Source of the DNA: a virus
Taxonomy: Duplodnaviria > Caudoviricetes
IMG/VR virus record: IMGVR_UViG_3300014638_000008
Location: 1-28,498 of that record
DNA length: 28,498 bases
Reading direction: 5' to 3' (one strand)
The translations under genes and the position numbers were made by a program. Position 1 is the stretch's first letter. Every line of letters starts with the position of its first letter. The notes below the pieces were generated by a model. The model saw nothing but the letters and a program-made list of their open reading frames with translations. It was not told the origin of the DNA and did not search any database. Shown one piece after another: positions 302-22,451 of this stretch.

Positions 302-340
302 TTGAGTCGTTGCGCCATCGGGCCATCGGAATATTAAAAA

Positions 341-2614: not shown

Positions 2615-2616
2615 TT

Positions 2617-3444
2617 ATGCCATACAGCAAACCTTCCGAGGCGCCGAGCTACATTCCAGACGATAAGAAAAAGCAGTGGATCGAGGTTTGGAACTCGGTC
2701 TATGACAAGGCCAAAAAGGACGGGAAAAGTGACAATGACGCCGAAGCTGAGGCATTCAAGCAGGCGAACGGCGTGATCAAGAAGGAGAAAAGTGGCATGA
2801 GCGGCAAGCGCGAGTTTAGGTTCACAAAGACCGGCGAATTCCGCATGAGCGAGGACGATAAATCGCTCATCGGCTACGCGGCGGTATGGGACCAATGGGC
2901 GGATATCAACAACATCATTGGCAGCTTCCGGGAATGCTTACGTCGAGGTTGCTTCCGGCGAGCCATCCAGGAAAAACAGGATGTGCGTGCCCTTTTTAAC
3001 CACGAGCCGAGCGCGCTGCTCGGGCGTTGCGAAGCGGGAACGCTGCGTCTGGCGGAGGACGGCCAGGGCCTGGCCTTCGAGGTTGACTTACCAGACACGC
3101 AGCTTGGCCGCGACATCCGCACCCTGGTGCAGCGGCGGGACCTCACGGGCTGCTCTTTCGGCTTCACCGCGAACGATCAAACGTGGTCCGAAACAGTTAT
3201 GGACGATGGCTCCGTGCAGTATAGCCGAGAACTGATGGACGTGGATCTCTACGACGTGGGACCAGTCACCTACCCGGCGTACACAGGCACAAGCGTGGAT
3301 GCGCGATCGCTCTGGCCGGATGGCGTACCGGAAGAAATCGCCACTCGGGGCAAAAAGATTATTGACCCAAACGAAGAGATCTCGGGAGCCGAAGAAAAAG
3401 AACTTCGCCGCGAGGCTGTACGGTTGAGATTTGGCATTCGGTAA
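2617..3444 (+). CDS. HK97-family prohead maturation protease with N-terminal ChaB-like domain
   Basis: Protease motifs GYAAVW, ALFNHE...LLGR, TLRLAED..GL, SFGF and DVGPVTYPAY. The N-terminus MPYS...WIEVWNS.Y...EAEAFKQANGVIK resembles ChaB. Confidence 0.92.
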   Translation: MPYSKPSEAPSYIPDDKKKQWIEVWNSVYDKAKKDGKSDNDAEAEAFKQANGVIKKEKSGMSGKREFRFTKTGEFRMSEDDKSLIGYAAVWDQWADINNIIGSFRECLRRGCFRRAIQEKQDVRALFNHEPSALLGRCEAGTLRLAEDGQGLAFEVDLPDTQLGRDIRTLVQRRDLTGCSFGFTANDQTWSETVMDDGSVQYSRELMDVDLYDVGPVTYPAYTGTSVDARSLWPDGVPEEIATRGKKIIDPNEEISGAEEKELRREAVRLRFGIR

Positions 3445-3451
3445 ACAGGTT

Positions 3452-3512
3452 TGCCCGGGCGCGGAGCGCTTAGGCATCGTGGCACTGCCAGCCGGAGGCG
3501 GGCGGGGGCCGC
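3452..3512 (+). promoter_or_regulatory. Twin hairpins with CGGAG apical loops in the capsid gene leader
   Basis: tgcc-c-gggcg[cggag]cgctt-a-ggca (3452-3476) and gtggc-a-ctgcc-a-gc[cggag]gc-g-ggcgg-gg-gccgc (3479-3512). Confidence 0.5.
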
Positions 3513-3517
3513 AGACT

Positions 3518-3548
3518 AATTTCAGATTTGAAATTTCAAATTTCAAAT
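3518..3548. repeat. AT-rich heptamer tract (AATTTCA) upstream of capsid gene
   Basis: aatttca gatttga aatttca aatttca aat, containing a 16-bp palindrome at 3526-3541. Confidence 0.92.
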
Positions 3549-3562
3549 CGGGAGAAAAACCA

Positions 3563-4999
3563 GTGAAGAAGAAAATTCTGGAGCTGCGCACGGCAAATGC
3601 AGCCCTGTTCGAGGAAACGCAAGCCCTGTTTCCCGAAAAGGGCGGGCAAAGCCCCGAGCAGCGCACCAAGTACGACAAAATCATTGCCGAGATGAAGGAC
3701 AATGACGAGACGATCAAGCGGCTCGAACAGCAACTGGAAATCGAGACACGCCTTGAGTCCTCGACTCGGCCTCCGAATAACCCCATCAACGCCGGCGAAG
3801 AGCCCATCGAGAAACAGGAATTCAAGAAGAAGGAAGAGCAGTATCGTTCTGCTTTCAGGGAACTCCTGCGTACCGGCCGCGATCTGGTGCTGACTGCGGG
3901 CGGGGACGGTCGGTTTGGCTATACCGGCACTCCACTCTCGGCCGTGCCGGAAGCGATACGCTCCGTGCTGGCAAGCAAAGAGCACCGCATCGCCTCGCGT
4001 TTCACCAAATACGGAGAATATCGCGACATGGGAATCACCGCTCCTTACGCAGCGATCCCGACGTCCGTCCTGGTCCCGCAGGGCTTCATGCAAGAACTGG
4101 AAATCGCCCTCAAGTGGTACGGGGACATGCTCAACGTGGGCACGATCCTCGAAACTTCCACTGGCCAACCGCTGCCTTACCCGACGATGAACGACACGAC
4201 CATCGTGGGTGAGTGGGTTGGAGAATCGCAGGCCGTCACCGGCGCTGCGGTGGGAACCTCGGTGGACATTCCGGTAAGCAACATCCTGCTGGGCGCGTGG
4301 AAGGCGTCAACCAAGATGGTCCACGTCTCACTCGAATTGCTCCAGGACTCGGCGTTTAACCCCGAGTCGTTCGTGAAGGATGCTTTCGCTATCCGCCTGG
4401 GCCGTTTGCTCAACACCGCATTTACCAAGGGCAACGGAAGCGGGCAACCCTACGGAATCATCCCGCAGGCGTTTTGTTCCTCAACTTACGATCCCACGCA
4501 TCCGGAGCAAGCCGTGCAAGTGGTGATTGGCGATGACAACGCTACGGCACCGGACCCCACGACCCAGGTTGGCTACATCGACCTCATCACGCTCGAACAC
4601 AGCGTCGATAAGGCCTACCGGCGCGGCGCGAAATTTATGATGCACGACACCACGGTTGCCTTCCTCAAATCGCTCAAAGACAAGTACGGTCGGCCGTTAT
4701 GGGGCAATGGCGGAGGCTTCGCTTCGCCCGTGCCGGAAACCATTCTGGGCTATCCATATGCGATCAACAACGACATGGACCAGCTCGGTCATACCAGCCC
4801 GGCCACCGCGCGCAATACCGTGGCTTTCGGACGCCTGGACAAATATCTCATCCGGCGAGTTAAGGACCTGGCTGTGCTGAAACTTGTGGAGCGCTTTGCC
4901 GAGTACGGGCAAGTGGCCTTCATCGGCTTCGCGCGTTACGACGGCAACCTGCTCGACGCAGGAACCCACCCGGTGAAGTATCTGCAAAATCCGGCCTAA
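3563..4999 (+). CDS. HK97-fold major capsid protein with N-terminal coiled-coil (delta) domain
   Basis: GTG at 3563 follows GGAG. Motifs LVPQGF, VSLELLQDSAFN, FTKGNGSGQP.GI, LKDKYGRPLW, ILGYP and GQVAFIGFARYDG. Confidence 0.95.
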   Translation: MKKKILELRTANAALFEETQALFPEKGGQSPEQRTKYDKIIAEMKDNDETIKRLEQQLEIETRLESSTRPPNNPINAGEEPIEKQEFKKKEEQYRSAFRELLRTGRDLVLTAGGDGRFGYTGTPLSAVPEAIRSVLASKEHRIASRFTKYGEYRDMGITAPYAAIPTSVLVPQGFMQELEIALKWYGDMLNVGTILETSTGQPLPYPTMNDTTIVGEWVGESQAVTGAAVGTSVDIPVSNILLGAWKASTKMVHVSLELLQDSAFNPESFVKDAFAIRLGRLLNTAFTKGNGSGQPYGIIPQAFCSSTYDPTHPEQAVQVVIGDDNATAPDPTTQVGYIDLITLEHSVDKAYRRGAKFMMHDTTVAFLKSLKDKYGRPLWGNGGGFASPVPETILGYPYAINNDMDQLGHTSPATARNTVAFGRLDKYLIRRVKDLAVLKLVERFAEYGQVAFIGFARYDGNLLDAGTHPVKYLQNPA

Positions 5000-5001
5000 A
5001 T

Positions 5002-5036
5002 AAATTTCAAATTTGAAATTTGAAATTTGAAATTTT
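5002..5036. repeat. AT-rich heptamer tract (AAATTTG) downstream of capsid gene
   Basis: aaatttc aaatttg aaatttg aaatttg aaatttt, containing a 20-bp palindrome at 5002-5021. Confidence 0.93.
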
Positions 5037-5037
5037 A

Positions 5038-5082
5038 GGTGAGGGAGGACGGTTCCTCTCCTCCGTCTTCCCTCGCCGTTTT
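5038..5082 (+). terminator. Probable intrinsic terminator or stabilising hairpin after capsid gene
   Basis: 15-bp stem ggtgagggaggacgg / ccgtcttccctcgcc (with G-U pairs) followed by gtttt. Confidence 0.7.
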
Positions 5083-5087
5083 AGAAT

Positions 5088-5249
5088 ATGTCAGAAGAAA
5101 AGCGTAAAACCCGCAAGGCGAAGGCTCGCAAGCCGGATCCGCGCTTATGGTGCGGCCGCGCGTTGCATCGAGCGCGCCTCCTGAAAGAGCGCGCGGGGCG
5201 CGAGATCGAGACAGCGGCGATTGACACGAGCAAGACGGAGCGAAGGTAA
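5088..5249 (+). CDS. Small basic hypothetical protein (53 aa)
   Basis: Manually translated as MSEEKRKTRKAKARKPDP...REIETAAIDTSKTERR. Its TAA overlaps the next ATG (TAATG). Confidence 0.65.
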   Translation: MSEEKRKTRKAKARKPDPRLWCGRALHRARLLKERAGREIETAAIDTSKTERR

Positions 5250-6055
5250 TGGCTGGTCTGCAAATTGAATTTCAGCCGGTATGCGAGCCGGTAGCGCTGG
5301 CGGACGTGAAGCACTTCCTGCGCGTCACCATCGATGAGGACGATGGACTGATTGGCGCGCTCATTTCGGCTGCGCGGGAGTACTGTGAGGAGTTTACTAA
5401 TCGCAAATTCATAAATACCGGGCTGATCCAAAGCCTAGATTCTTTCCCGTACTTTACGGACACCATTATGTCTCAAATGGCGTATCCGCCCAGCTATTAC
5501 TCCTTGCCGCGCTACTCGACCACGCTCTGGAACTACTCACAGATGATTAAGCTGTATTATTCGCGATTGGCGCGGGGATCGACAAGCAAGATCAGTTACG
5601 TAGCGAGCTCGGACCTGGATTGGCATACGCTGGTAGGAACAGACGACATTCAGAATCGCGCCGCAGATTTCCTGGCAGACGTACTCTGCGAGCCTCCGCG
5701 CTTATTTCCCCAAGCGGGAATGTATTGGCCCAGCGTACTTTATGTGCCCAATGCCGTCCAAATCCATTACGCGGCAGGTTACAACTGGGACAGCGCGATT
5801 GCTGCCGCCCTGGCCGAACTGAGCCCGCCCATTGACGAGTTGGCCACGGACGCGGCGAATTGCACTCCCGAAGAGGCGCAACTCCGTCAAGCGGACGTGC
5901 CAGCGCGCATCAAGATCGCGATCAATCAACTGGTGGCGTTTTGGTACGAAGCGCGCGAGCCGCTGGCGGCTGCCGCGGCTAAGTCCGCACCCAATTTTAT
6001 CGATGCGCTACTTTGGTCTTTCCGCGTCGAGGATTACGCGCCCACTAGGGGCTAA
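5249..6055 (+). CDS. Head-tail connector protein (HK97 gp6 / phiE125 gp8-like)
   Basis: Motifs EPVALADVKHFLRV...DDGLIGALISAARE.CE, AVQIHYAAGY and VP..IK.AI..LVAFWYEARE. Confidence 0.9.
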   Translation: MAGLQIEFQPVCEPVALADVKHFLRVTIDEDDGLIGALISAAREYCEEFTNRKFINTGLIQSLDSFPYFTDTIMSQMAYPPSYYSLPRYSTTLWNYSQMIKLYYSRLARGSTSKISYVASSDLDWHTLVGTDDIQNRAADFLADVLCEPPRLFPQAGMYWPSVLYVPNAVQIHYAAGYNWDSAIAAALAELSPPIDELATDAANCTPEEAQLRQADVPARIKIAINQLVAFWYEAREPLAAAAAKSAPNFIDALLWSFRVEDYAPTRG

Positions 6056-6072
6056 TCAATCGGATTTAATCT

Positions 6073-6327
6073 ATGACTCGCTTCCACGGGCCTGGGGCTT
6101 TTCGGGATTTGCGCGATGCGGAAATTGCCGCAGTAGTGAAAAATATCCATGCGCAGCGCGACGCGCATGAATCGGCGGTGATGCGCACGCAAGCGAATCG
6201 CGAAGAGTGGATGATTCACCAAGTGGCGCCGGGGCTCATTGATGATCGGGCGATAGCCATGCGCCACCCTGACGTGCGCGCGCGCGCCGAGTTTGCAAAG
6301 CTCTTTCAGCCGAGATCCGGCCATTGA
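6073..6327 (+). CDS. Hypothetical protein (84 aa)
   Basis: ATG ORF exactly filling the gap in the operon; no recognised motif. Confidence 0.55.
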   Translation: MTRFHGPGAFRDLRDAEIAAVVKNIHAQRDAHESAVMRTQANREEWMIHQVAPGLIDDRAIAMRHPDVRARAEFAKLFQPRSGH

Positions 6328-6334
6328 GGACATT

Positions 6335-8089
6335 ATGAAACTTCGCTTTTTGTGGTCAATTTTTCTTCTAGCAAGCATGGCGTTGGCCCAGACCACTCCG
6401 TACCGTGGCCAGGGGACGCTCGCCAATCGCCCTTCGCCACCGCCTGTGAATGCCGGCGTCGCTGCATACTACTGTGCCACGGACACCGGGGATTTTTTCT
6501 ACTGGACGGGCGTACAATGGCTGCGCTCATACGGCAATTGCTACGCGGCGGCTGGTAATGGCATAAGCTCGCTAAATGGGCTTACGGGTAGCTCGCAAAC
6601 ATTCGCGACAAACACATCGGGAACAGATTTCACAATTAACTCCAGCGGCACGATACATACATTTCAGTTACCCACAGCGAGCGCTAGCAACCGTGGATTG
6701 CTGTCGTCTGCCAATTGGTCAACTTTCAACGGCAAACAGTCCGCACTGTCCTCGAACGCAGGGGCGACGCACGAATGGATATCGAGTTTCTCGGCTCCAA
6801 ACACTTTCAGTTTTACCCAACCGGCCTCGACCGACCTTTCTGATTATGGGGGTTTGCTGGGAGTCCCGGCATTTCTGGCTTCGGGAAGCGGACACGCGGC
6901 GGGCCTCGTACCCGATCCCGGGGCGAGCGCAGGATCAACCCGCTATCTGCGCGAAGACGCGAGTTGGGATGTTCCTGCGGGAGGTAGTAGTGGATCGCAA
7001 GTAAACAATACAGCACAAATGGGGCCTGCGGCGGTGGGCTCCACGGGATTTAAGATCATCGAGGCGGTGAGTTGCGAGAACGCTGGAGCGCAGACTACCA
7101 TAAGCTGTCCAGCCTTTGCCACCGCGATGCAAAGCGGCGATCAGATCATCGCTGTGGCTATGATCGGTAGCGGAGGAGCCACAGCACCCAATTGCTCGGA
7201 CAACCTCAATGGAGCTTACACGAGCCGCGTTGCTGACGAAAACGGTGGAAATCTATATAGGCTCTCCGATATCCTAAACTCTGCCGCAGGGACGGCAACC
7301 CTTACGTGCACCGTCGCAAGTGGAAATAGCAATGGTTTTCAGGTCTCCGCCATTCATGTGACGGGAATTACGTCATACGACACGGCGACTGACAATTATT
7401 CCAGCTACAGCGGAGTGCCCGTCGTGGCGATTGCCACTCGAACTACGGCGCAAGATAACGAAGTGCTGATCGCCGCTGGAATGTACGAGGGCACAAGCGC
7501 CTCCGGCTTTGGATTTGTGACGCCAGGATTCATTAATCCTCCCAACTCATCGGCGTATCAATTAAGCTGCTCAGCTTATAATTGCTGGGCGGAGTTGGCA
7601 TATGCGCCCGCAGGCGCAGCGGGGAGTTATTCAGCGGGCGTGCTTGGATCCTACATCATTTTGGCGGCATACAGAACGGGATCTGCGTCCACCTCGGGCA
7701 CACCCACGTTTCGCGCCATCACAACGGCGGATCTTCCATCTCATACGCCCGCCACGATTTTCTCTGCGACTTGGGCGTCTATTTCCGGCGCGATAAGCGA
7801 TACTTTGACGGTCGTGCCCATGACCAATCAGGCATTCCTTTTTCGTGGGAATGCCGCCTGCACCGCCTCGGGGACTGGGATTGCAAGTCTCGACCTAAAA
7901 TATAAAGACGTTTCCAACACGGCCATAACCGTGAGCTCGATCGCTAACTGCGCGATCCTGGGCGCCGCCAGCAATGCCAGCACGGTGGAATCATTCACGG
8001 CGCTGGGCGGATCGCAGATCACCTATGGCGTCTCGGCAACCAACACGCCCATCCATTCGGGCGGTGCGTTCTTGCAACAGGAGAATTAA
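6335..8089 (+). CDS. Ser/Thr/Gly/Ala-rich fibre-like protein with N-terminal signal peptide
   Basis: ATG at 6335 follows GAGGA. MKLRFLWSIFLLASMALA/Q is signal-like. Fibre-type motifs ISSLNGLTG, PTASASNRGLLSSANWSTFNGKQ, GLVPDP...RYLREDASW and PTFRAITTADLP. Confidence 0.75.
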   Translation: MKLRFLWSIFLLASMALAQTTPYRGQGTLANRPSPPPVNAGVAAYYCATDTGDFFYWTGVQWLRSYGNCYAAAGNGISSLNGLTGSSQTFATNTSGTDFTINSSGTIHTFQLPTASASNRGLLSSANWSTFNGKQSALSSNAGATHEWISSFSAPNTFSFTQPASTDLSDYGGLLGVPAFLASGSGHAAGLVPDPGASAGSTRYLREDASWDVPAGGSSGSQVNNTAQMGPAAVGSTGFKIIEAVSCENAGAQTTISCPAFATAMQSGDQIIAVAMIGSGGATAPNCSDNLNGAYTSRVADENGGNLYRLSDILNSAAGTATLTCTVASGNSNGFQVSAIHVTGITSYDTATDNYSSYSGVPVVAIATRTTAQDNEVLIAAGMYEGTSASGFGFVTPGFINPPNSSAYQLSCSAYNCWAELAYAPAGAAGSYSAGVLGSYIILAAYRTGSASTSGTPTFRAITTADLPSHTPATIFSATWASISGAISDTLTVVPMTNQAFLFRGNAACTASGTGIASLDLKYKDVSNTAITVSSIANCAILGAASNASTVESFTALGGSQITYGVSATNTPIHSGGAFLQQEN

Positions 8090-8092
8090 GGC

Positions 8093-8473
8093 ATGCCTCC
8101 CCCTCGCCTGGATGCCGGCAAGCTTCGCCACGTGATCCAGATCGTGTCTCCATCGAAAGTGCAGGGCGCGGCGGGCGGGCTTGTAACTGCTGACGACACG
8201 ATCTTCGCAACGGTTTGGGCGAGCGTGGAGGCGCTGACGGCGCGCGAGATTTTTGCTGCGCAGCAGATGGTTTCCCAGGTTACGCATAAGATCACTATCC
8301 GCTACCTCGAGGGCGTGAAATCTAAAATGAGAGTGTGGTTTCAGATGGCGCCATGGTCCACCAAGCGCGAATTCGAGATCATGGGCGTAAGCAATCCCGA
8401 CGAACGCCCCCACATGCTCGTACTCCTGTGCAAAGAGCGAGACGATTCAGCTTACGAGGTTCCCGGAAGCTGA
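8093..8473 (+). CDS. Head closure / head-tail adaptor (SPP1 gp16-like)
   Basis: Motifs AGKLRHVIQI, ATVWASVE...RE, THKITIRY..GV...MRV and LLCKE. Confidence 0.92.
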   Translation: MPPPRLDAGKLRHVIQIVSPSKVQGAAGGLVTADDTIFATVWASVEALTAREIFAAQQMVSQVTHKITIRYLEGVKSKMRVWFQMAPWSTKREFEIMGVSNPDERPHMLVLLCKERDDSAYEVPGS

Positions 8474-8497
8474 GAAGATCAGGGAACCAATATTCCA

Positions 8498-8968
8498 ATG
8501 CCTGACGTCATGACCGTCAAAATCTCGGGGCTCGACCAGATAGACAGAAAACTTAGATCGATGCCACTGGGGGTTGCCCGGCGACTTCTACGCCAAGCGA
8601 TGCGCTCTGCGGCTACGATTTGGCGCGACGAGATGCAAATACGCGCGCCACGGGGCGCGACAGAGGTAAGAACTAAATCCGGTATCATCAAGAAATATCC
8701 GGGTTTTCTCGCGGAGCATATTCGTATCCAGGTGGGAGCAAATTCGGACCTGGAAGGCTACGCCAAAGTCGGACCGGCCAGGGCGGCTTTTTGGGGAATG
8801 TTCCTCGAATTTGGCACAGGGCCTCGTCACAAAAAATCCGGTGCATACTCAGGTGTGATGCCAGCTCATCCTTTCATCCGAGCTAGTTATGAATCCAAAG
8901 CCAGCGCGGTGCTGGATAAGTTTGTCGAAGAAGGGCGCAAGATTGTGGCAGAGGAAGCGATACATTAA
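8498..8968 (+). CDS. HK97 gp10-family tail completion protein
   Basis: Motifs ISGLDQ, RAP, FWGMFLEFGT and MPAHPFIR. Confidence 0.9.
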   Translation: MPDVMTVKISGLDQIDRKLRSMPLGVARRLLRQAMRSAATIWRDEMQIRAPRGATEVRTKSGIIKKYPGFLAEHIRIQVGANSDLEGYAKVGPARAAFWGMFLEFGTGPRHKKSGAYSGVMPAHPFIRASYESKASAVLDKFVEEGRKIVAEEAIH

Positions 8969-9399
8969 TGTTCGAATCGGATTTCTACGCCTTACTCACG
9001 AGCGATGCCACGCTACAATCCCTGCTGGGAAACAGCGCTTCGCCTGTGGCCACTCGCGGAGATGGCAAAAGCGGGATATTCCCGGTCACTCTTCCCTCAG
9101 CCTCCACGCTACCGGCAATAGTTTGGCTGATCATTTCCGGGAGCAGTATCGACACGCTCCAAGGCTGCAATCTGACCGGGCGCAAACGGGTACAGCTTGA
9201 CGTTTACGCCGCGGAATACGAGACGGCGAAGGCTGTTTTCGCAGAGCTCAAAAATCTGCTTTGCGGCTATCGCGGCGCGACGCAAAGCGGCGGGTACATC
9301 ACGTCCGTGATCAAGAATTTAGAACAGGACGTTTTCGAGGAAGTTCCGCTGCTTTTTCGCGCCATCCTGGATTTTAGCATGCTCTACACAGAACCTTAA
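8968..9399 (+). CDS. Tail terminator (DUF3168-like)
   Basis: Motifs IFPVTLP....PAIV, RVQLDVYA..Y..AK and FRAILDF; lies just before the tail tube gene. Confidence 0.85.
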   Translation: MFESDFYALLTSDATLQSLLGNSASPVATRGDGKSGIFPVTLPSASTLPAIVWLIISGSSIDTLQGCNLTGRKRVQLDVYAAEYETAKAVFAELKNLLCGYRGATQSGGYITSVIKNLEQDVFEEVPLLFRAILDFSMLYTEP

Positions 9400-9426
9400 A
9401 TCAATCCTGAGAAGAGGTGAAACAAA

Positions 9427-9900
9427 ATGGGCAATTACACCGGAAGCAAGGCGTTTGGCGGACCGGGGACATTCTTGGCGGTCGGCAACGGCGCGAGTCC
9501 CGAAGTTTACACAGAAGTTGCAGAAATCAAGACCATCAAGCGCAGCGGCTCCAAGATGGACACGCCCGACGTTACCAACATGGAGACGGTCAACCGATAT
9601 CGCGAGTACATCGCGACGCTGCTGGATGCCGGGGAAATCAGCATCGAGGGTAACTACATTCCCCACGATACCACGCAGCAGAATCTCCAAGCGCTTTTCG
9701 ATAACGCCACGCTGGCGCCTTGGACGATCACAAACCCGGCCCAGTCCATTGAAGTGTCCGGTGATCTACTCCCCGGATTTTGGGCGTTCAATGCTTACTT
9801 GACCAGCCTGGACATCGATTGGGACGTGGCCAAGGAAGCAACGTTCAGCGCCAAGCTAAAAGTCACTGGCCGGCCGGTCTACACCGACGAAGCGGTCTAA
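9427..9900 (+). CDS. Major tail tube protein
   Basis: Motifs VAEIKTI, DVTNME...YREYIATLLDAGEISIEGNYIP and AKLKVTGRP; strong GAGGT SD. Confidence 0.9.
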   Translation: MGNYTGSKAFGGPGTFLAVGNGASPEVYTEVAEIKTIKRSGSKMDTPDVTNMETVNRYREYIATLLDAGEISIEGNYIPHDTTQQNLQALFDNATLAPWTITNPAQSIEVSGDLLPGFWAFNAYLTSLDIDWDVAKEATFSAKLKVTGRPVYTDEAV

Positions 9901-10495: not shown

Positions 10496-10818
10496 CCTGG
10501 CGCGAATTCGGCCGACTAAGCATTGCGGAATTCGATGCTCTGCTGGACCGCAAACAGGAGGCTGACCGCAAAGACTTCCTGCGCGCGGGCATCATCGCCG
10601 CGACGATCATCAATAGCAATCCCTGGCGAGAAAAGGGTGCGAAGGCTGCGGATCCATTTGACTTTGTGCCGGGGGGAAGAATCGGCGGTCAGAGACCGCC
10701 GCTACAGGCGCAGACGCTCAAAGAACAGGTGGCGACGCTCACCCAAATCATGGGATGCGGCCCGCGAAAAAAGCAGAAAGCAGAAAGTAGAAAGCAGAAG
10801 GCGCAGAGCAGGAGTTGA
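10378..10818 (+). CDS. gpT-like extension of the tail chaperone reached by -1 frameshift
   Basis: The -1 frame is open from 10327 to TGA at 10816-10818: ...TWIEYWAIARFDLGLTWREFGRLSIAEFDALL...RAGIIAATIINSN...DPFDFVP. Candidate slip site G AAA AAC at 10378-10384; start coordinate is approximate. Confidence 0.8.
   Translation, partial: EKQACAWPGPYTGAGERDAGAAPTTWIEYWAIARFDLGLTWREFGRLSIAEFDALLDRKQEADRKDFLRAGIIAATIINSNPWREKGAKAADPFDFVPGGRIGGQRPPLQAQTLKEQVATLTQIMGCGPRKKQKAESRKQKAQSRS
10770..10797 (+). repeat. Heptamer tandem repeat (AAAGCAG) x4
   Basis: aaagcag aaagcag aaagtag aaagcag, encoding KQKAESRKQK at the end of the gpT frame. Confidence 0.9.
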
Positions 10819-11177
10819 GCGTGACAATCGAAGCCATGGTCGTCTGTCTGGTGCTCGCGCTTTTATATCTGGATTCCCATTTCGATCGACCCAGCAGGAA
10901 AGAATTCGAAAAACTAAAGGAGACAATCATGTCAGGACTTACCGATTTACAAGCTGTTGTAGCAAAGTTGCAGGCGGACCTCACAGGGCTGCAAACCTCT
11001 GTCCAAAACGCGCTAATCGCCATCGAAAACGAAGACCAAGATACAGCAGTGGAGACCGCGGCACAAGCGCTGCAGGCCGTTGATGCCGGACTCGAAGCGG
11101 CAACCGCCAGTTTGAGTGCGATTGCGCCGGCTCCCGCGCCAGCAGCTCCCGCAGCTCCCACACCCGCTGCCAGCTAA
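10815..11177 (+). CDS. Ala-rich coiled-coil hypothetical protein, probably with two in-frame starts (10815/10821 and 10929)
   Basis: GGAG precedes the TTG/GTG upstream starts and AAGGAG precedes ATG 10929. The long form has an N-terminal hydrophobic segment; both have an APAP-rich tail. Confidence 0.75.
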   Translation: MSVTIEAMVVCLVLALLYLDSHFDRPSRKEFEKLKETIMSGLTDLQAVVAKLQADLTGLQTSVQNALIAIENEDQDTAVETAAQALQAVDAGLEAATASLSAIAPAPAPAAPAAPTPAAS

Positions 11178-13727: not shown

Positions 13728-13762
13728 AGGGAACAGGGAATAGGGAACAGGGAATAGGAAAC
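13728..13762 (+). repeat. Heptamer tandem repeat (AGGGAAY) x5
   Basis: agggaac agggaat agggaac agggaat aggaaac, filling most of the spacer between tape measure and DUF2460 genes. Confidence 0.95.
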
Positions 13763-13766
13763 AGAA

Positions 13767-15658: not shown

Positions 15659-18600
15659 ATGCCGGACACCACAAAAAGAGAGTTGTTACCGCCGGGCGGT
15701 ACGCGCACCGAAAGGGACTCCATCGGTCCCGGTCCGCCCTTTGATTATCCCGCTACACTCGTGGGATCGATCGGCAATATCAGCGTCTATTACGATCCCT
15801 CGCTAGGCAGCTCGGGCCTTGCGCTGGCGAATCAACTCCTGACTGGGGTTTCCGCCCCTTACGGGACGTTCGAGACCTGGTTCGCGATTAGCGGCGGCAG
15901 CCTTTCGGTAGTCGTTTCCCCTCTGAGTGGGGCACATGATGGCTCGGGCGGTGGATACCACTACGGCTGCTCATTTGCCGTGGGAGGCAACTCCGGCGTC
16001 ATTTACGTGGACGCGACGTTTGCAAACACAGAAGTCAATCCACTCAACCTCGCCGTGGGTCTTTACGCCGCAGAATTATCTGAAATGTTCGAGGGCGCCC
16101 AGGCCCTCGGCTGGGGATGCGGATACAGCAACGGCGAAGGCCTTTCGCGCTTCGCGGCCGAGCAGGTCACACCGGCCGGCACGATGTACCAATTCCTCAC
16201 CGGGCCCTCCTGGGCAACGGCCGGCAAGCCAGATTGGGTGGACACGACCGAGCTGACCGATGAGGATGCTGTCTCCACCGGGTGTGCCATCGTTTACCTC
16301 TATTGGATGGTACACCTCGGCTATACCATTCCCCAAATTGTCCAGGCGGCCGGGGCGACACTCGCCGACAACTATCAGACACTCACCGGCAAGACCACGG
16401 CCTACGCGGATTTACTGGCTGCGGTCTCCAGCCTCTCGATTACCTCAGACAATCCCTGGGGAAGCGGCGGGGGCGGATCGCCCACAGGCACGCTTTCGGC
16501 TACAGGCTTTACAGCGTCCGCCATCATCTCTGAGTGGCAAGCGAATCATGCCTATCAAGATGGTTCGCAAAGCGCTGACCCTTACGTCGATTACGTGATC
16601 GACAGCAATGGCAACCTACAAGTCTGCTACGAGTACGGAGTTTCAGGAGCAAGCCCGCCGGCATGGAACACGACACCAGGCGGCCTGACAACCGACAACT
16701 CCGCTCAGTGGATTTTAGAGCCACTTCTGCTGAATCAAGTTCAAATCGGAAATGAGATCACGTTGAGCTGGACATCGACCAATGGGATCTCCGCGTCCAT
16801 CGACCATGGCGTCAATACGGTAGCCTTGAATGGCTCTCTGGTGGTTGCGCCTAACGTAAGCAACCTCACAGGGACAAAGGAAAACTATGGCAAAGCCTGG
16901 CGCTGCGCTTATACACTCACCGTCACCGGGTCGGACGGCTCCGCCACTTCTATTTTGACGTTTTATCTATACGTTGTTCCCCAGAGGTTCACCGCCCAAT
17001 GCTTTGCTCCGGTCAACAATTCGAGTCTCGTCAACATGCCACGGGCGGGCTCCTGGCCGATCCCGCCCGGATCATGGCCGCAAGCTGTCTGGGCACCTGA
17101 TACCCCATACACGGAAGGCACGGTGGTGCGGGACTCGAACAACATGGCGGAGATCGCACTTAATTCCGGCAGCTCAGGGGCGACCGACCCGCACTGGGTT
17201 GGCATGGGCGATATCACCACGGAAACTACCGGCTTGAAGTGGCAAAATCTCGGGAATACGTATTCGGCACAAGTAATGGTTGCGCAGTTCGGACCGGATG
17301 GATGGATGGCGCCTCGAATCGGTTTTGGTTTCGAAGGTGCCGTGCTTCCTGTGAACGCCACCGTCCCATCCTGGCAGGCGAACACGGCGTATAAAATTGG
17401 CGACGTGGTTGGCTTTGTTTCCACCACGGGCGCTCCGGGCTTGATGATCGCCAGATGCGTCTCGCCCGGTACATCCGGCGCCGCATTTGCGTACATCGAC
17501 GTTGCCTTTGGGCGCTTGGGCGCGCTTGTGCCTGAAACTACAAGTTACGAGTCAGGTATTATCATTCCCAATAGTCCAACTTGGGCTTCCATCGGACAGC
17601 TCGAACTCTCGCTATATTGGGCGGGCGGGATTGACATGCAGCCCTCTCACTACCCGCCGTTCACGCAACTCACCGAAGAGGAAGGAGGTTTTGCGAATGT
17701 GATCGCGGGCATAGGCGATCCGATCGTGCCGCAGAAGTGGGGCCCTCTCAGCGGATCCCAGATAAATGGATTCTACGTTGAGCCAGTCGCTTTTGACCCG
17801 CTCTGGTACGTGGGGAATTCGCAAGACGTCGATGAGTGCATCGGGGGTACGGGAACATGCTTTACGTGTATCGGCCTGGCTACCGGTTATCTCCCCTGGC
17901 CGCCCGCGGGGGAGTGCACTCCGTTTCTCGCCACGATTTACGCGGTGTGGGCGGAATATACCATGCCGTATCTGCCCATCTACCCATCAATCACCCCGCC
18001 CACACCGGCGCGAGGCTGCGCCGTCATGGGTTTCACTACGCACGATCAAGACATCACGTATGATGCCGGCAACGGCGATGGCCCGATTACGTACCGGGCG
18101 GCTACCGGCATGGCGAATACCGCCAAAGAAGGGAAGTCCGACGTCAGTGTGGATGGCATGGAAGTGACTGCCTTCTTGGAGTCTGATTCGATTACCGAAG
18201 AGGATATCCGCGCCGGGCTCTACGATAACGCCGAAGTGATTGTGCGCGTCGTGAATTGGGCGGACCTCACGATGGGTCACATGATCGTGATGCGCGGCCA
18301 CACTGGCACCGTCAAAATGAAAAATGGGCTCTTCACAGCCGAGTTGCGGGGGCTCTCGCAAAAGCTGACTACCGCGCTCTCGCAGACCTACGGTGAGCTC
18401 TGCCGTGCGGACCTGGGGAGTAATCCATCAAACGATCCCGGTCCCTGGTTCTGCAATATCAACATCGCATCCTACCAGCAAAACGGGGCAGTGGAACAGG
18501 TAATCGATGATCGCACCCTAGTACCGGGATCTGGTTTGCTTCAGGTGGGCTCGGCCACACCCACGGCTGCGGCAGCCGCGGGTTGGTTTAATGATGGCAT

Positions 18601-18841
18601 AATCACCTTCACTTCCGGCGTGCTCGAATGCGCGAGCTTCGAGATCAAGTCATGGGATGGAACAACGCTGACGCTTTTTCTCTCCATGCCCGAGCTGCCT
18701 GCCACGGGTGACACATTTGTAATTGAGCCGGGATGCGACAAGTCTTCGGCTACTTGCCAGGCGAAATTTCAGAATATCGCCAATTTCCGGGGCGAGCCTT
18801 TCATCCCGGGAATGGACCAGCTCCTAGACTATGCAGGGTGA
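15659..18841 (+). CDS. Multidomain tail protein: zincin-like domain, CBM-like repeats and N-truncated DUF2163/BR0599 hub
   Basis: From 18011: VMGFTTHDQD, ITEEDIRAGLYDNAEV, VNWAD, FTAELRGL, CRADLG, GWFNDG and PGCDK...TC..KF.N..NFRGEPFIPG.D. Confidence 0.88.
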   Translation: MPDTTKRELLPPGGTRTERDSIGPGPPFDYPATLVGSIGNISVYYDPSLGSSGLALANQLLTGVSAPYGTFETWFAISGGSLSVVVSPLSGAHDGSGGGYHYGCSFAVGGNSGVIYVDATFANTEVNPLNLAVGLYAAELSEMFEGAQALGWGCGYSNGEGLSRFAAEQVTPAGTMYQFLTGPSWATAGKPDWVDTTELTDEDAVSTGCAIVYLYWMVHLGYTIPQIVQAAGATLADNYQTLTGKTTAYADLLAAVSSLSITSDNPWGSGGGGSPTGTLSATGFTASAIISEWQANHAYQDGSQSADPYVDYVIDSNGNLQVCYEYGVSGASPPAWNTTPGGLTTDNSAQWILEPLLLNQVQIGNEITLSWTSTNGISASIDHGVNTVALNGSLVVAPNVSNLTGTKENYGKAWRCAYTLTVTGSDGSATSILTFYLYVVPQRFTAQCFAPVNNSSLVNMPRAGSWPIPPGSWPQAVWAPDTPYTEGTVVRDSNNMAEIALNSGSSGATDPHWVGMGDITTETTGLKWQNLGNTYSAQVMVAQFGPDGWMAPRIGFGFEGAVLPVNATVPSWQANTAYKIGDVVGFVSTTGAPGLMIARCVSPGTSGAAFAYIDVAFGRLGALVPETTSYESGIIIPNSPTWASIGQLELSLYWAGGIDMQPSHYPPFTQLTEEEGGFANVIAGIGDPIVPQKWGPLSGSQINGFYVEPVAFDPLWYVGNSQDVDECIGGTGTCFTCIGLATGYLPWPPAGECTPFLATIYAVWAEYTMPYLPIYPSITPPTPARGCAVMGFTTHDQDITYDAGNGDGPITYRAATGMANTAKEGKSDVSVDGMEVTAFLESDSITEEDIRAGLYDNAEVIVRVVNWADLTMGHMIVMRGHTGTVKMKNGLFTAELRGLSQKLTTALSQTYGELCRADLGSNPSNDPGPWFCNINIASYQQNGAVEQVIDDRTLVPGSGLLQVGSATPTAAAAAGWFNDGIITFTSGVLECASFEIKSWDGTTLTLFLSMPELPATGDTFVIEPGCDKSSATCQAKFQNIANFRGEPFIPGMDQLLDYAG

Positions 18842-19306
18842 ATGCTGGCCATGGTAACCCGACAACAAATCGTTACCGAAGCGCGCAAGTGGATTGGCAC
18901 GCAGTTCCGCCATCAAGGTCGGAGGCGCGGTCAGGGCGTGGATTGCGTAGGCCTCGCGCTGTGCATTGGGGAAGACTTGGGCTTGCATGACGTGGCAGGG
19001 AGTCCCTTATTGCGCACCGACTATCAGCGGTATGGATCCCAGCCGACCACTTCTATCGTTCACGACGAATGCTGCGCGCGCTTGGTGCGCAAAGAGCTTA
19101 AAAACGCAACCATTCAGCCGGGCGATGTGCTCACGCTGCGCGTGCCCATACTGGCTTGTCACGTGGCCATTGTCACCAATCTCGCCAAAGGCGAACTGGG
19201 CATCGTCCATGCTTACGCAGGATCAAAGAAAGTCGTGGAGCATACACTCTCTGAAAAGTGGCTACATCGGATCGAAGGCTTTTTCACGTTCCCTGGCATT
19301 GACTGA
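18842..19306 (+). CDS. Phage tail NlpC/P60 peptidase (RcGTA g14-like)
   Basis: Motifs IV.EARKWIGT.FRHQGR...GVDCVG, PGDVL, HVAI and IVHAY. Confidence 0.93.
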   Translation: MLAMVTRQQIVTEARKWIGTQFRHQGRRRGQGVDCVGLALCIGEDLGLHDVAGSPLLRTDYQRYGSQPTTSIVHDECCARLVRKELKNATIQPGDVLTLRVPILACHVAIVTNLAKGELGIVHAYAGSKKVVEHTLSEKWLHRIEGFFTFPGID

Positions 19307-19335
19307 TAACTGACAACTGATAACTGATAACTTTT
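19301..19335 (+). repeat. Heptamer tandem repeat (AACTGAT) x5
   Basis: gactgat aactgac aactgat aactgat aactttt; contains the NlpC stop and ends 2 nt before the next ATG. Confidence 0.95.
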
Positions 19336-19337
19336 CA

Positions 19338-21107
19338 ATGGCTAAAATTGCATTAGCGGTCGGGGCGGGAGTTGCCACCGGCCTAACCATGGGCATTGCC
19401 GGATATCCTATCGCGATTGCGATGGAAGGCGCACTTTCGGCTGGCAGCATTGGCCTAGCTGTGGGAGGACTTCTATTTCCTCCCAAGATTCCCGGCCTCG
19501 TGCCACTCCAGGACCGCCAAGTATCATCCTCTGCCGATGGCGCTCCCATCCCATTTGGCTATGGCACTGGGCGAGTGGCGGGCCAGGTGATTTGGTGCCC
19601 CGGGATTGAGTACTACACCGTCGGCAACGCAGGCAAAGGCGGTGGCACGGCAGCGGGCTTGGAATACTACTACCTCGCCTCGATCGCGGCGGCGTTTGGG
19701 GAAGGCCCCGCCACGATCGAGAAGATTTGGGCGGATAGCAATATCATCTACGATGGGGGTGCGGACTTCGGAGCTTTCTGCCCCTGGAATGCCGACACCA
19801 CGTATCAGCCCGAGCAATTGGTTTCATATCAGTGGAATCCCGGCACAGGCCAGGTGACGGACATTTTCCGCTGCGTGATCGCTAACACTGACATCCCGCC
19901 GGCAGGCAACAGTCTTTATTGGGTCTTGTCGGGATTTCCGTATTACAACGATCTTGAAGAGAGCATCCAGTACTACCCTGGCAACCAGGTGGCATTTCCC
20001 GGCCAAAGCAACACAGCCCCCACGTGTGGAGAGATATATACCTGCGTCAATCCCTGTCTCGACGTGATGCCTCAGCCAGCTAGCGATTGGCAGACGATGA
20101 GCGAATACTACGTCGTTCCCACATTCTATTCGGGATCACAAGATCAGGATGCCGATCCGACCATCCAGGGCAACAATGGCGTAGACGCGACGCCCGCTTT
20201 TCGTGGCATCTGCTATTGCGTGTGGGAAAACCTGCCCCTGGCGACATTTGGCAACCGCATCCCCAACCTGCGCGCGCAGATCAATTACACGTCAGGCGAG
20301 GCTTCGCCGGATGTTTCCCAGCCGACCATCGATCAAATCCTAATGGATCTTTGTACGCGCTCTGGACTCGCCGAAACCGATGTGGATATTTCGTTGATGA
20401 CGGCAGAAAACGTCTACCCCGAAAATCAGATTTTCGGCTTTGTCTGCGAGCATCCCTCGACGGCGGCGGACCATATCAAACAGCTTGTGCCAGCTTATTT
20501 CTTTGGAGCCTGCGAATCCGACGGAGTGTTGCGCTTCGTTCCTCGCACGATTCTGACCGACGCTTCGGGCTCGCCGGTCACGCCCTTTACGATCGCCGAG
20601 AATGACCTAGGTCTCTTCGAAGACAAAGGGAAGCTCGAGGAAACCTTTGGCCAAGAACAAGACCTTCCCCTGATCGAAACGGTGCTCTATAACGATGTGG
20701 CGCTCAATTGGCAGCAGGGGAAGCAAGTCAAGCAGCGCTGCGCACGCACCGTGAACACCAAACAGCAGCATATGCTGTCCATGCCGCTGTCGCTATCAGA
20801 CACCGACGCGCGGCAAATCGCCGAGGCCACACTCTACAGCGCCTGGACCAATCGCCGTTCTTTCAAGCTTAATCTTCTCCGCGCGCTCTACATGCTCCTC
20901 GATCCCACGGACATCATTGACATGATTTACGAGGGAACGCCCATCGAGATTCGCCTGGTTTCCAAAACGGAAGGCCAGGGCTACGCAGTGAGCGTGCAGG
21001 CGGTGCAAGAAGACGTGCGCAACTACGGCTCGGTGGTAGCTGGCGTGTCGAACGAAGCTTTCCAGCCAGGCCAAGTCGCGGCGGCATCTCCGACCATTCT
21101 CCTGTGA
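19338..21107 (+). CDS. Central tail-tip / host-specificity protein (RcGTA g15/J-like), N-terminal part
   Basis: Motifs GAPIPFGYG..RVAGQVIW, FGEGP....KIWAD, PAFRGICY.V.E.L.L..FGNRIP and ESDGVLRFVPR. Confidence 0.9.
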   Translation: MAKIALAVGAGVATGLTMGIAGYPIAIAMEGALSAGSIGLAVGGLLFPPKIPGLVPLQDRQVSSSADGAPIPFGYGTGRVAGQVIWCPGIEYYTVGNAGKGGGTAAGLEYYYLASIAAAFGEGPATIEKIWADSNIIYDGGADFGAFCPWNADTTYQPEQLVSYQWNPGTGQVTDIFRCVIANTDIPPAGNSLYWVLSGFPYYNDLEESIQYYPGNQVAFPGQSNTAPTCGEIYTCVNPCLDVMPQPASDWQTMSEYYVVPTFYSGSQDQDADPTIQGNNGVDATPAFRGICYCVWENLPLATFGNRIPNLRAQINYTSGEASPDVSQPTIDQILMDLCTRSGLAETDVDISLMTAENVYPENQIFGFVCEHPSTAADHIKQLVPAYFFGACESDGVLRFVPRTILTDASGSPVTPFTIAENDLGLFEDKGKLEETFGQEQDLPLIETVLYNDVALNWQQGKQVKQRCARTVNTKQQHMLSMPLSLSDTDARQIAEATLYSAWTNRRSFKLNLLRALYMLLDPTDIIDMIYEGTPIEIRLVSKTEGQGYAVSVQAVQEDVRNYGSVVAGVSNEAFQPGQVAAASPTILL

Positions 21108-21141
21108 AACCGATAACTGAAAACTAACGACTGAAGACTCC
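21103..21141 (+). repeat. 39-nt in-frame heptamer-repeat segment interrupting the tail-tip gene
   Basis: aaccgat aactgaa aactaac gactgaa gactccg; CTCC at 21099-21102 and 21138-21141; three in-frame stops. Confidence 0.85.
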
Positions 21142-21143
21142 GA

Positions 21144-22121
21144 ATGCTTGACATCCCCTTACTTCGCGACACTGACGCCAACCCATCCGGGTCGGGGTTT
21201 TACGTGGCGCTATCATCCATCGACCCGAACTGGCCGGGGGCTGTGCTCTATCGCGGCAGCGATGGGATAAACTTCAACCGGTACGATTCGAGCAATGTGC
21301 GAGCATCGTTCGGATATGCACTCAACGCCCTGGGCGCGATTGGTCCGGGCTCGCCCGAATCGCCATTTTCACCTTGGGAGTGGGACACCGAAAACACACT
21401 TACCGTTCGGTTGATGGTGGGCGAGCTAGCCAGCGACACGGAAGAGAACGTGATCAACGGATCAAATCCAATGATTCTAGGCCAGGAGCTGATTCAATTT
21501 TGCGATGCGGTGCAAAATGAGGATGGATCGTGGACCGTCTCGCAGCTCCTGCGGGGGCGCCGGGGCACAGATGGGGCCTGCGGGACCCACGCCGTCGGGG
21601 ACCTCGTGATTCTTCCTTTGGCGGGAGGGCTGATTCGAAAATCTTCGCCACTGTCCGAGATCGGTTCTTTGCGCTACTACCGCGCCGTCACGCTGGGCAA
21701 GACCGTCGATGCTGTGCAAAGCGTTCCGTTCACGCTCGCGGCGAATGATCTGAAACCGTGGAGCCCGGTTGATATCAACGCGGCCATCAATGGAAGTGGC
21801 GATCTCGTAATCACATGGCAGCGGCGCACGCGCTTGGGTGGTTATTATCAAAATTTCGGATCACCGGCTGGGCAGTTTGCGGATGGACTCGGCGGCCCAC
21901 TCAGCGAAGCCTCTGAACTTTACGAAATTGACATCCTGGGCGGCAGCCCCGAGGAAGTTTTGCGCACGCTAAGCGCAACATCCGAAAGTGTGACATACAC
22001 AGCTGCGCAAGCGGCGGCAGACTTTGGATCAACCCCTGCCACGATCGCGGTGAACGTCTATCAGATCAGCGCCGTGGTGGGTCGGGGCTCGCCCGGCAGC
22101 GCGGTGATAGGCGCATGGTAA
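21144..22121 (+). CDS. Central tail-tip protein, C-terminal part
   Basis: Motifs LDIPLLRD, WPGAVLYR, ELIQF..A, LLRGRRGT, ITWQRRTR, PLSEASE.YEIDI and VYQISAVVGRG; same frame as the upstream part. Confidence 0.9.
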   Translation: MLDIPLLRDTDANPSGSGFYVALSSIDPNWPGAVLYRGSDGINFNRYDSSNVRASFGYALNALGAIGPGSPESPFSPWEWDTENTLTVRLMVGELASDTEENVINGSNPMILGQELIQFCDAVQNEDGSWTVSQLLRGRRGTDGACGTHAVGDLVILPLAGGLIRKSSPLSEIGSLRYYRAVTLGKTVDAVQSVPFTLAANDLKPWSPVDINAAINGSGDLVITWQRRTRLGGYYQNFGSPAGQFADGLGGPLSEASELYEIDILGGSPEEVLRTLSATSESVTYTAAQAAADFGSTPATIAVNVYQISAVVGRGSPGSAVIGAW

Positions 22122-22129
22122 GCCTGTAG

Positions 22130-22148
22130 CGGCGGTCCATGACCGCCG
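22130..22148 (+). promoter_or_regulatory. GC hairpin at the tail/lysis boundary
   Basis: Perfect 8-bp stem cggcggtc-cat-gaccgccg with no U tract. Confidence 0.45.
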
Positions 22149-22163
22149 AGAGAGGTTTCAGTT

Positions 22164-22451
22164 ATGGCCGAGGATCGCATGATTTTAGCTGGAAGTGAAT
22201 GGAGCGAGCAATTGATCGAGCGCTTGGTGCGCATGGAAGCAAACATCGAGCAGATCAAGCGCTGCCTGTGGGGAAACGGCCAGCCCGGCCGCTGCGCGCG
22301 CGAGGATGAACGCATTCATGCGCTTAACAGCCGAGTCCAACAACTCGAAAACCAAGTCACCTATCACCGCGCCATCGTGGTCGTCGTCTCGGCCGTGGTG
22401 GGCTCGCTAACCTCGGTGGCGTGGCTTTTTCTCACCTGGCTGCGCAAATAG
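22164..22451 (+). CDS. Membrane protein, holin/XhlA-like
   Basis: Coiled coil, GNGQPG motif and a C-terminal TM helix; directly before the endolysin. Confidence 0.65.
   Translation: MAEDRMILAGSEWSEQLIERLVRMEANIEQIKRCLWGNGQPGRCAREDERIHALNSRVQQLENQVTYHRAIVVVVSAVVGSLTSVAWLFLTWLRK

Follow-up and report, generated by a model that had tools for sequence, protein, structure and literature searches.

A heptamer array at a stop/start boundary within an ancestrally single phage tail-tip gene, probably now two coupled genes

Is a stop-laden segment in the middle of a phage tail-tip gene skipped, so that a single chain is made, or has it turned one gene into two? The question is raised by a 28,498-nucleotide (nt) stretch of DNA, positions 1 to 28,498 of the IMG/VR virus record IMGVR_UViG_3300014638_000008 (Duplodnaviria; Caudoviricetes), which is referred to here at its full length as the window. 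This 28.5-kb record carries head, tail and lysis genes of a long-tailed phage. Its tail-tip gene, related to the megatron of the Rhodobacter capsulatus gene transfer agent (RcGTA), is open from 19338 to 22121 save for TGA 21105, TAA 21114 and TGA 21132, all within a 39-nt run of heptamers. An initial annotation had described this stop-laden in-frame segment and a pair of CTCC tetramers 39 nt apart; the quoted sequence and the pair (21099-21102 and 21138-21141) are present as described. It proposed that the segment is skipped by a ribosome hop, RNA excision or reversible DNA deletion, or else that the repeat supplies a stop plus a restart and makes two genes of one. Our results support the last of these, as gene fission. 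We put at roughly 0.6 the probability that the locus consists of two coupled genes with likely strand complementation, the array lying at a stop/start boundary inside an ancestrally single gene. The features of the locus are as follows.

19338..21107, + strand: upstream half, an RcGTA-megatron-like tail-tip protein of 589 amino acids (aa) (PF13550, PHROG 4271; relatives match 6TBA and 8GTC; intact-homologue model)
21084..21104, + strand: last seven upstream codons, encoding a stub that in the complex model is predicted to lie between two downstream-half strands (residues 255-261 of chain 2 at the interface)
21099..21102, + strand: CTCC copy 1, on the gene side, possibly a chance match or a target-duplication remnant (425 of 20,000 shuffles match as well)
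21105..21143, + strand: the 39-nt insert, TGAA plus five ACTGAYA-type heptamer units at 21109-21143 (sequence, repeat search, alignment and folding)
21138..21141, + strand: CTCC copy 2, within the last heptamer unit (sequence, shuffles)
21144..22121, + strand: downstream half, a fibre-binding domain of 325 aa with a Met start (PF23666, PHROG 4271)

The boundaries of the insert were set by alignment to the best 120 of 301 homologues. The insert amounts to 13 codons, and none of the 120 has a residue in its 13 columns, which makes it exactly 39 nt long. The most parsimonious boundaries, and those favoured by homology, run from TGA 21105 to CGA 21143, so that Leu589 is followed by Met. The cut from one CTCC to the other, which had been taken to give a seamless frame, is disfavoured: it puts an Arg in a column that holds Arg in 2/120 homologues against F, I, W, V, L or M in 90/120, although the R4C megatron does have Arg there. 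Nor is the CTCC repeat more than mildly noteworthy, with runs as long recurring in the shuffled inserts at p about 0.02. The insert abuts ATG 21144 directly (0 nt) and is predicted to be unstructured (minimum free energy, 0). As the initial annotation had remarked, this ATG lacks a clear Shine-Dalgarno (SD) sequence; pairing to what we take to be a generic anti-SD motif was close to nil (-1.4 kcal/mol). In intact homologues the restart column holds Leu in 95/120 and Met in only 4/120, and so rare a Met at this place is expected if a start codon was needed.

The insert is not an artefact of assembly, since contigs from three runs (X1, X2 and X5) span it with zero differences. The X3 contig has a left flank too short to count as bridging, the X4 pieces among the matches listed do not bridge, and X8, X9 and X10 gave short identical pieces, none of them over the junction. 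The runs carrying the window sequence are mostly wetland metagenomes, possibly from one campaign and so maybe not independent, and X1 is possibly the source sample. No RNA run was listed among them, which says nothing about expression. No 39-nt deletion, which the initial annotation had thought might be found among reads, was seen in the 8 DNA runs (3 of them bridging the site, all as contigs, which drop rare variants). This bears on the proposal that part of the population has the gene switched on by a reversible deletion between the two CTCC copies. The direct repeat is in register, but at 4 nt it is too short to recombine efficiently, and without a donor the deletion could not be reversed. 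We consider this reading highly improbable. Still smaller, and close to nil, is the chance that the segment is an assembly artefact or is passed by stop-codon readthrough or recoding. The length of the insert, a multiple of three, suits readthrough, but ribosomes would have to pass two TGA codons and one TAA and add 13 residues to a strand in which none of the 120 homologues has an insertion, and the other genes of the window end normally, with TGA, TAA or TAG.

Both open reading frames (ORFs), 19338-21107 and 21144-22121, lie in one frame and match consecutive stretches of PHROG 4271, the upstream ORF up to profile position 994 (at its residue 587) and the downstream ORF from position 997. 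An intact homologue of 57% identity matches the RcGTA and R4C megatron chains (6TBA, 8GTC), and the model of another intact homologue retrieves the RcGTA and R4C structures plus other tail-tip proteins. The gene order Dit, hub, small minor-tail gene, tip is found in the window as well, with the tip as two ORFs. The split gene is accordingly assigned to the megatron-like tail-tip proteins, with a central hub domain (PF13550) and then a fibre-binding domain (PF23666). Both halves are open and conserved, have a usable start and are gene-like in the GC content of third codon positions (GC3); conserved columns are kept at 10/10 positions in the upstream half and 50/51 in the downstream half.

The break falls at a defined place in the fold. 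In RcGTA the fibre-binding domain spans residues 985-1304 and sits on a 20-residue linker, according to the description in PMC7296036; the R4C domain is given as residues 1131-1447 (PMC10276861). By our own count the break aligns between RcGTA residues 1000 and 1001, about 15 residues into the domain. In the model of an intact homologue (mean predicted local distance difference test score, pLDDT, 91.9) it lies in the middle of the first strand after the linker (strand 261-265). The upstream half would accordingly hold the N-terminal region, the central (hub) domain, the linker and the first 3 residues of the first strand of the fibre-binding domain. We modelled the 325-aa chain together with the last 40 residues of the upstream chain. 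The complex scored 0.76 against 0.00 for the best control, a mark reached by 116/157 solved complexes and 2/215 mismatched pairs; contact agreement between runs was at least 74%, and the partner pLDDT was at least 37. Confident contacts were those of the stub's last seven residues, placed between downstream-chain residues 21-27 and 179-183. The upstream stub is thus predicted to fit the downstream chain, which speaks of fit and not of binding, as split halves tend to pass by likeness to the intact protein.

In other phages the same gene is broken very near this codon. Fission in which overlapping stop and start codons couple translation of the two parts is a familiar event, and the shorter homologues (n = 118) already hinted at it, with 12 beginning one residue past the window's Met and 7 beginning 27 residues past it. 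We scored 214 loci in a scan that was deliberately enriched for a split clade and in which some contigs recur, so that the split share is not a frequency: besides the window, 34 were split, 151 intact, 15 unaligned, 10 other (3 of these split by eye) and 3 at a contig edge. Two candidates, L018 and L019, were rejected as splits and left uncounted since they end before the junction in a protein that naturally lacks the domain; also left out were L297, which looks rearranged, and L320, which has a single stop further upstream. Restart geometries among the 34 split loci were a GTGA overlap (14), TGATG or TAATG (10), a stop followed by ATG (7), ATGA (2) and a stop, one nt and ATG (1). Such shifting of frame among five geometries counts against a conserved recoding signal. 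The initial annotation had held that splits in repeat-free homologues would tell against its proposal. Splits of that kind do exist, in unrelated phages with plain stop/start overlaps, and they support fission and count against skipping.

The 33 distinct split sequences form one large clade (L055-L104, L294 and L321; about 50-100% identity), which breaks one to two codons from the window's break. Its upstream gene ends in a conserved T-x-L-E-L-M/F-type tail, a conserved C-terminal strand, and GGAG typically stands just before the restart. A quick tree was built from 87 rows, of which 33 were these split sequences, 53 a subsample of the intact rows and one the window itself. In it the window nested among intact genes, the nearest at 62% identity, and the split clade stood apart with one intact member inside. 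This member, L076, is an intact gene nested in the clade and an apparent re-fusion. A single origin of the window and clade splits was rejected by the approximately unbiased (AU) test (p-AU 2e-62, 39-row subset). A further breakpoint about 27 codons downstream was found in L347-L350 and L353 (5 loci, ATGA overlaps) and in L357 (short spacer), and another lies in the linker of L399, with one more further upstream. In L399 (1536-4361) the gene is in three pieces of 313, 302 and 329 aa whose stops and starts overlap. The second and third split groups were not separated by the AU test (p 0.23) and are distinguished solely by their differing breakpoints. These two additional breakpoints lie no more than about 30 codons from the window's break. 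In all, at least three and probably four separate breaks of the tail-tip chain fall in a stretch of about 45 codons, and those outside the window show no repeats. Six shorter homologues from long contigs (P0123, P0129, P0125, P0136, P0157 and P0168), whose starts fall in the linker or close to it, are possible further splits, P0123 and P0129 perhaps in close relatives. No cultured split member was identified among 120 phage records matching the split-clade protein, all below 60% identity (best rows 31-36%; gene boundaries not inspected).

A ribosome hop across the insert, yielding one chain, was the first of the skipping mechanisms proposed, by analogy with T4 gene 60. As described in PMC7026636, bypassing in gene 60 depends on a stop directly behind the take-off codon, on a landing codon that matches the take-off codon and on a stem-loop at the take-off site. 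The insert is exact, in frame and as free of structure as the gene 60 gap, the ATG behind it has no SD, and the Arg that a CTC-to-CTC hop would leave at the junction is found in R4C. The codons do not fit. The CTG before TGA 21105 has just two matches: landing at 21117 is in frame but meets TGA 21132, landing at 21131 is in another frame, and both lead to stops. One pair alone would be productive, CTC/CTC, 39 nt apart, and its take-off site has a sense codon (CTG) and no stop behind it. Folding of 21085-21165 gave no take-off stem-loop (-3.4 kcal/mol, z +0.64, no better than shuffles). Bypassing would also have no need of the rare Met, and the sister arrays described below stand between separate genes. 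A gene 60-like hop is poorly supported, and we judge it very unlikely. Slightly more doubtful again is removal of the segment from the RNA as a micro-intron. Exact removal would give back a homologue-like frame, but 39 nt is far under the size of self-splicing introns, the window has no Rfam match, the segment has no fold and no paired ends, and the same arrays occur between genes, where removal is not needed. We do not regard the insert as evidence for a new kind of recoding.

The insert instead belongs, on its sequence, to the class of TAACTGA-type heptamer arrays described by MacGregor in 2015 (PMC4679880). In that description they are intergenic direct repeats of Beggiatoaceae, Cyanobacteria and Bacteroidetes, with tandem 7-nt units in 2-6 copies, in forward orientation shortly before start codons; every frame contains stops, and there is little SD character and no structure. 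A role in translation is offered there as a proposal only. The units of the insert are a mixture of variants in which no perfect TAACTGA copy directly follows another, and similar variant units occur in bacterial arrays. Two further arrays in the window occupy gene junctions.

19302..19337, + strand: sister ACTGAYA array between the stop of an NlpC/P60-like gene and the tail-tip ATG (repeat search; PHROG 329 minor tail upstream)
13728..13766, + strand: array of AGGGAAC heptamers from the same kind of position, between the stop of the tape-measure gene and the ATG after it, with a different unit

The NlpC/P60-like label is our assumption from synteny with RcGTA. The insert and the 19302-19332 array form one repeat family. 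The sister array ends 5 nt before ATG 19338, where pairing to the same presumed anti-SD motif gave 0 kcal/mol; an ATG without an SD behind such an array agrees with the description by MacGregor 2015 (PMC4679880). In total the window holds seven heptamer arrays, and 4 of the 6 others end within 20 nt of a start codon (P 6e-6, with a hand-picked list of start codons). Two tail junctions were compared with those of relatives: in most relatives the stop and the start are in tight contact there, and the window has an array. Other arrays in the window were a CAGGATT array in frame at 1808-1854, between the portal and histidine-phosphatase-like stretches of one gene, and an AAAGCAG array at 10770-10799, in frame at the end of the neighbour frame of ORF 10523-11083 and just before the SD and start of the next gene. 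This neighbour frame presumably belongs to a frameshift-extended tail chaperone. The related phage L010 has nine heptamer arrays of other units at gene boundaries (325-9434), including inverted pairs and one that extends the upstream ORF.

Taken together, these results lead us to favour two coupled genes. Translation of the first gene would end at TGA 21105, ribosomes would probably cross the unstructured array and start again at ATG 21144, and the last residues of the upstream chain would slot into the first beta-sheet of the downstream chain and so hold the two chains together. We infer translation of the second half, the role of the array in restart, the re-association of the chains and a working virion. 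The array may either have made the stop or have settled into an existing junction, since the 39 nt can just as well be parsed as five units added to a stop/start junction of 4 nt.

Several observations weigh against two coupled genes. The break lies inside the strand and leaves 3 of its 5 residues upstream, whereas the large split clade has the whole strand upstream. The GGAG that precedes the restart in that clade is absent before the window's restart, and a 36-nt gap is long for tight coupling. Persistence of the split is also in doubt, in that the searches turned up no close relative that shares it, only identical copies or intact relatives of at most 62% identity. Single-protein scans of viral contigs returned only an identical partial copy (L001), metagenome and genome scans returned relatives of at most 48% identity, and a protein search with the upstream half gave 3 proteins, with no matching truncated form. 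Array-split genes were not found elsewhere: among 57 distinct viral arrays away from contig ends, 11 had long ORFs on both sides and 0 had one family on both sides, a weak test since most flanks were without a match. Among 17 bacterial arrays from 4 genomes, none had ORFs on both sides by the rule used, which has little power. Finally, 34 of 43 close loci, counted by eye, have a tail-fibre-like gene directly after the tip gene; neither the window nor the 749 nt past its end contains such a gene. With this gene absent, the downstream domain may be idle, its partner lost.

This last point opens the main rival. The split may be real and yet no longer matter. Selection on the fibre-binding half, or on the whole tail, would then be relaxed in a prophage that is resident or decaying and gathers repeats from its host, with the array as a tolerated insertion. 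We judge this possible but on balance improbable. The fibre-like gene has gone from the slot between the tip and holin-like genes, which adjoin in the window, and a GTAG hairpin is found there; the tip protein also lacks the short C-terminal extension of its nearest relatives (22121-22164), the window contains seven arrays and two such hairpins, and no split close relative was found. On the other side, no other broken structural gene was seen in the window, and both halves keep their conserved residues and gene-like GC3. A rare Met exactly at the junction would be unexpected for a random knockout, the insertion is at most 2 codons from a site of stable fission elsewhere, and a fibre-like next gene is missing, too, from some relatives whose tip gene is intact (e.g. 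L014, L015 and L016). In L003 the homologue of the holin-like gene follows an 830-aa gene. The short hairpin preceded by GTAG occurs in three copies, at 22126-22149 (+) and 10682-10705 (-) in the window and at L001:7099-7126. We presume that these hairpins resemble the repetitive extragenic palindromic (REP) elements of RAYT transposases, and they are a possible sign of a long stay in a host chromosome.

A wider proposal can be made tentatively, and it may well prove wrong. TAACTGA arrays could be portable stop-plus-restart cassettes: set before a Met codon, one would end the upstream frame and recruit ribosomes without an SD, creating a two-gene operon in one step, and the first strand of the fibre domain would be a natural split-protein tag, put to use in at least three independent fissions. 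Both the array class and gene fission are already known. What is new is an array at a boundary that was once inside a gene, together with the recurrent fission of a tail-tip protein. In the open-access literature, supplements aside, we found no paper that reports gene fission by such an array or a split megatron gene; MacGregor's supplementary tables of in-ORF repeats may bear on this novelty. Heptamer arrays before start codons are widespread and unexplained, and nearly all stand at old gene boundaries, where they may be harmless filler. Here the boundary falls in what is coding sequence in relatives, which leaves the downstream protein without an ancestral ribosome-binding site, and the window array lets one ask whether the array itself drives restart. 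If the cassette proposal is true, the phage is a natural experiment in boundary gain for this unexplained repeat class. That a megatron/Tal-like tail-tip protein has been cut repeatedly where its fibre-binding domain begins suggests a natural joint for strand complementation, and recurrent fission of the tip gene accounts for many short 'hypothetical' proteins in phage annotations.

Elsewhere in the window, the portal protein (341-2614) is fused to a histidine-phosphatase-like stretch (PF00300, residues 596-675), and the baseplate hub gene (15659-18841) has about 780 additional N-terminal residues ahead of its PF09931/PF09356 domains. A 598-aa gene with a signal-peptide-like start (6293-8089) lies between the head-tail adaptor and head-closure genes; it has no family match and only weak hits in the Atlas search, and it has a 30-40 residue segment in common with the post-tip proteins of L064, L082 and L083. 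A promoter and terminator scan found nothing exceeding shuffles. Acidobacterial names on 3 homologues (42-45% identity) give a weak host hint. Judged from a 40-kb contig with the same protein, about 11 kb of the genome lies outside view.

The locus can be set against four known systems. The insert is like the TAACTGA arrays of MacGregor 2015 (PMC4679880) in its unit family, forward orientation, all-frame stops, start-codon end, and lack of SD and RNA structure, and those arrays can overlap an upstream stop, as the insert does; unlike the arrays described there, it is in a phage, between the halves of an ancestrally single gene. With T4 gene 60 and the byps elements of Magnusiomyces, as presented in PMC7026636, it shares a short, largely unfolded non-coding gap that opens with a stop, and it differs from them in lacking a frame-restoring take-off/landing pair at the stop and a take-off stem-loop. 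The RcGTA megatron (Rcc01698/g15) and the R4C megatron (PMC7296036, PMC10276861; 6TBA, 8GTC) have homologous central and fibre-binding domains, and the window's break comes just past the linker. These megatrons are described as single chains, 1304 aa and 1447 aa long, which known fibres follow or pair with, whereas the window has 589 + 325 aa and no adjoining fibre gene. The fourth parallel is the overlap-coupled fission of L055-L104, L347-L353 and L399, where, as in the window, the stop and new start fall within a few codons of the same structural position; the window differs in having a 36-nt repeat spacer without an SD in place of an overlap with GGAG.

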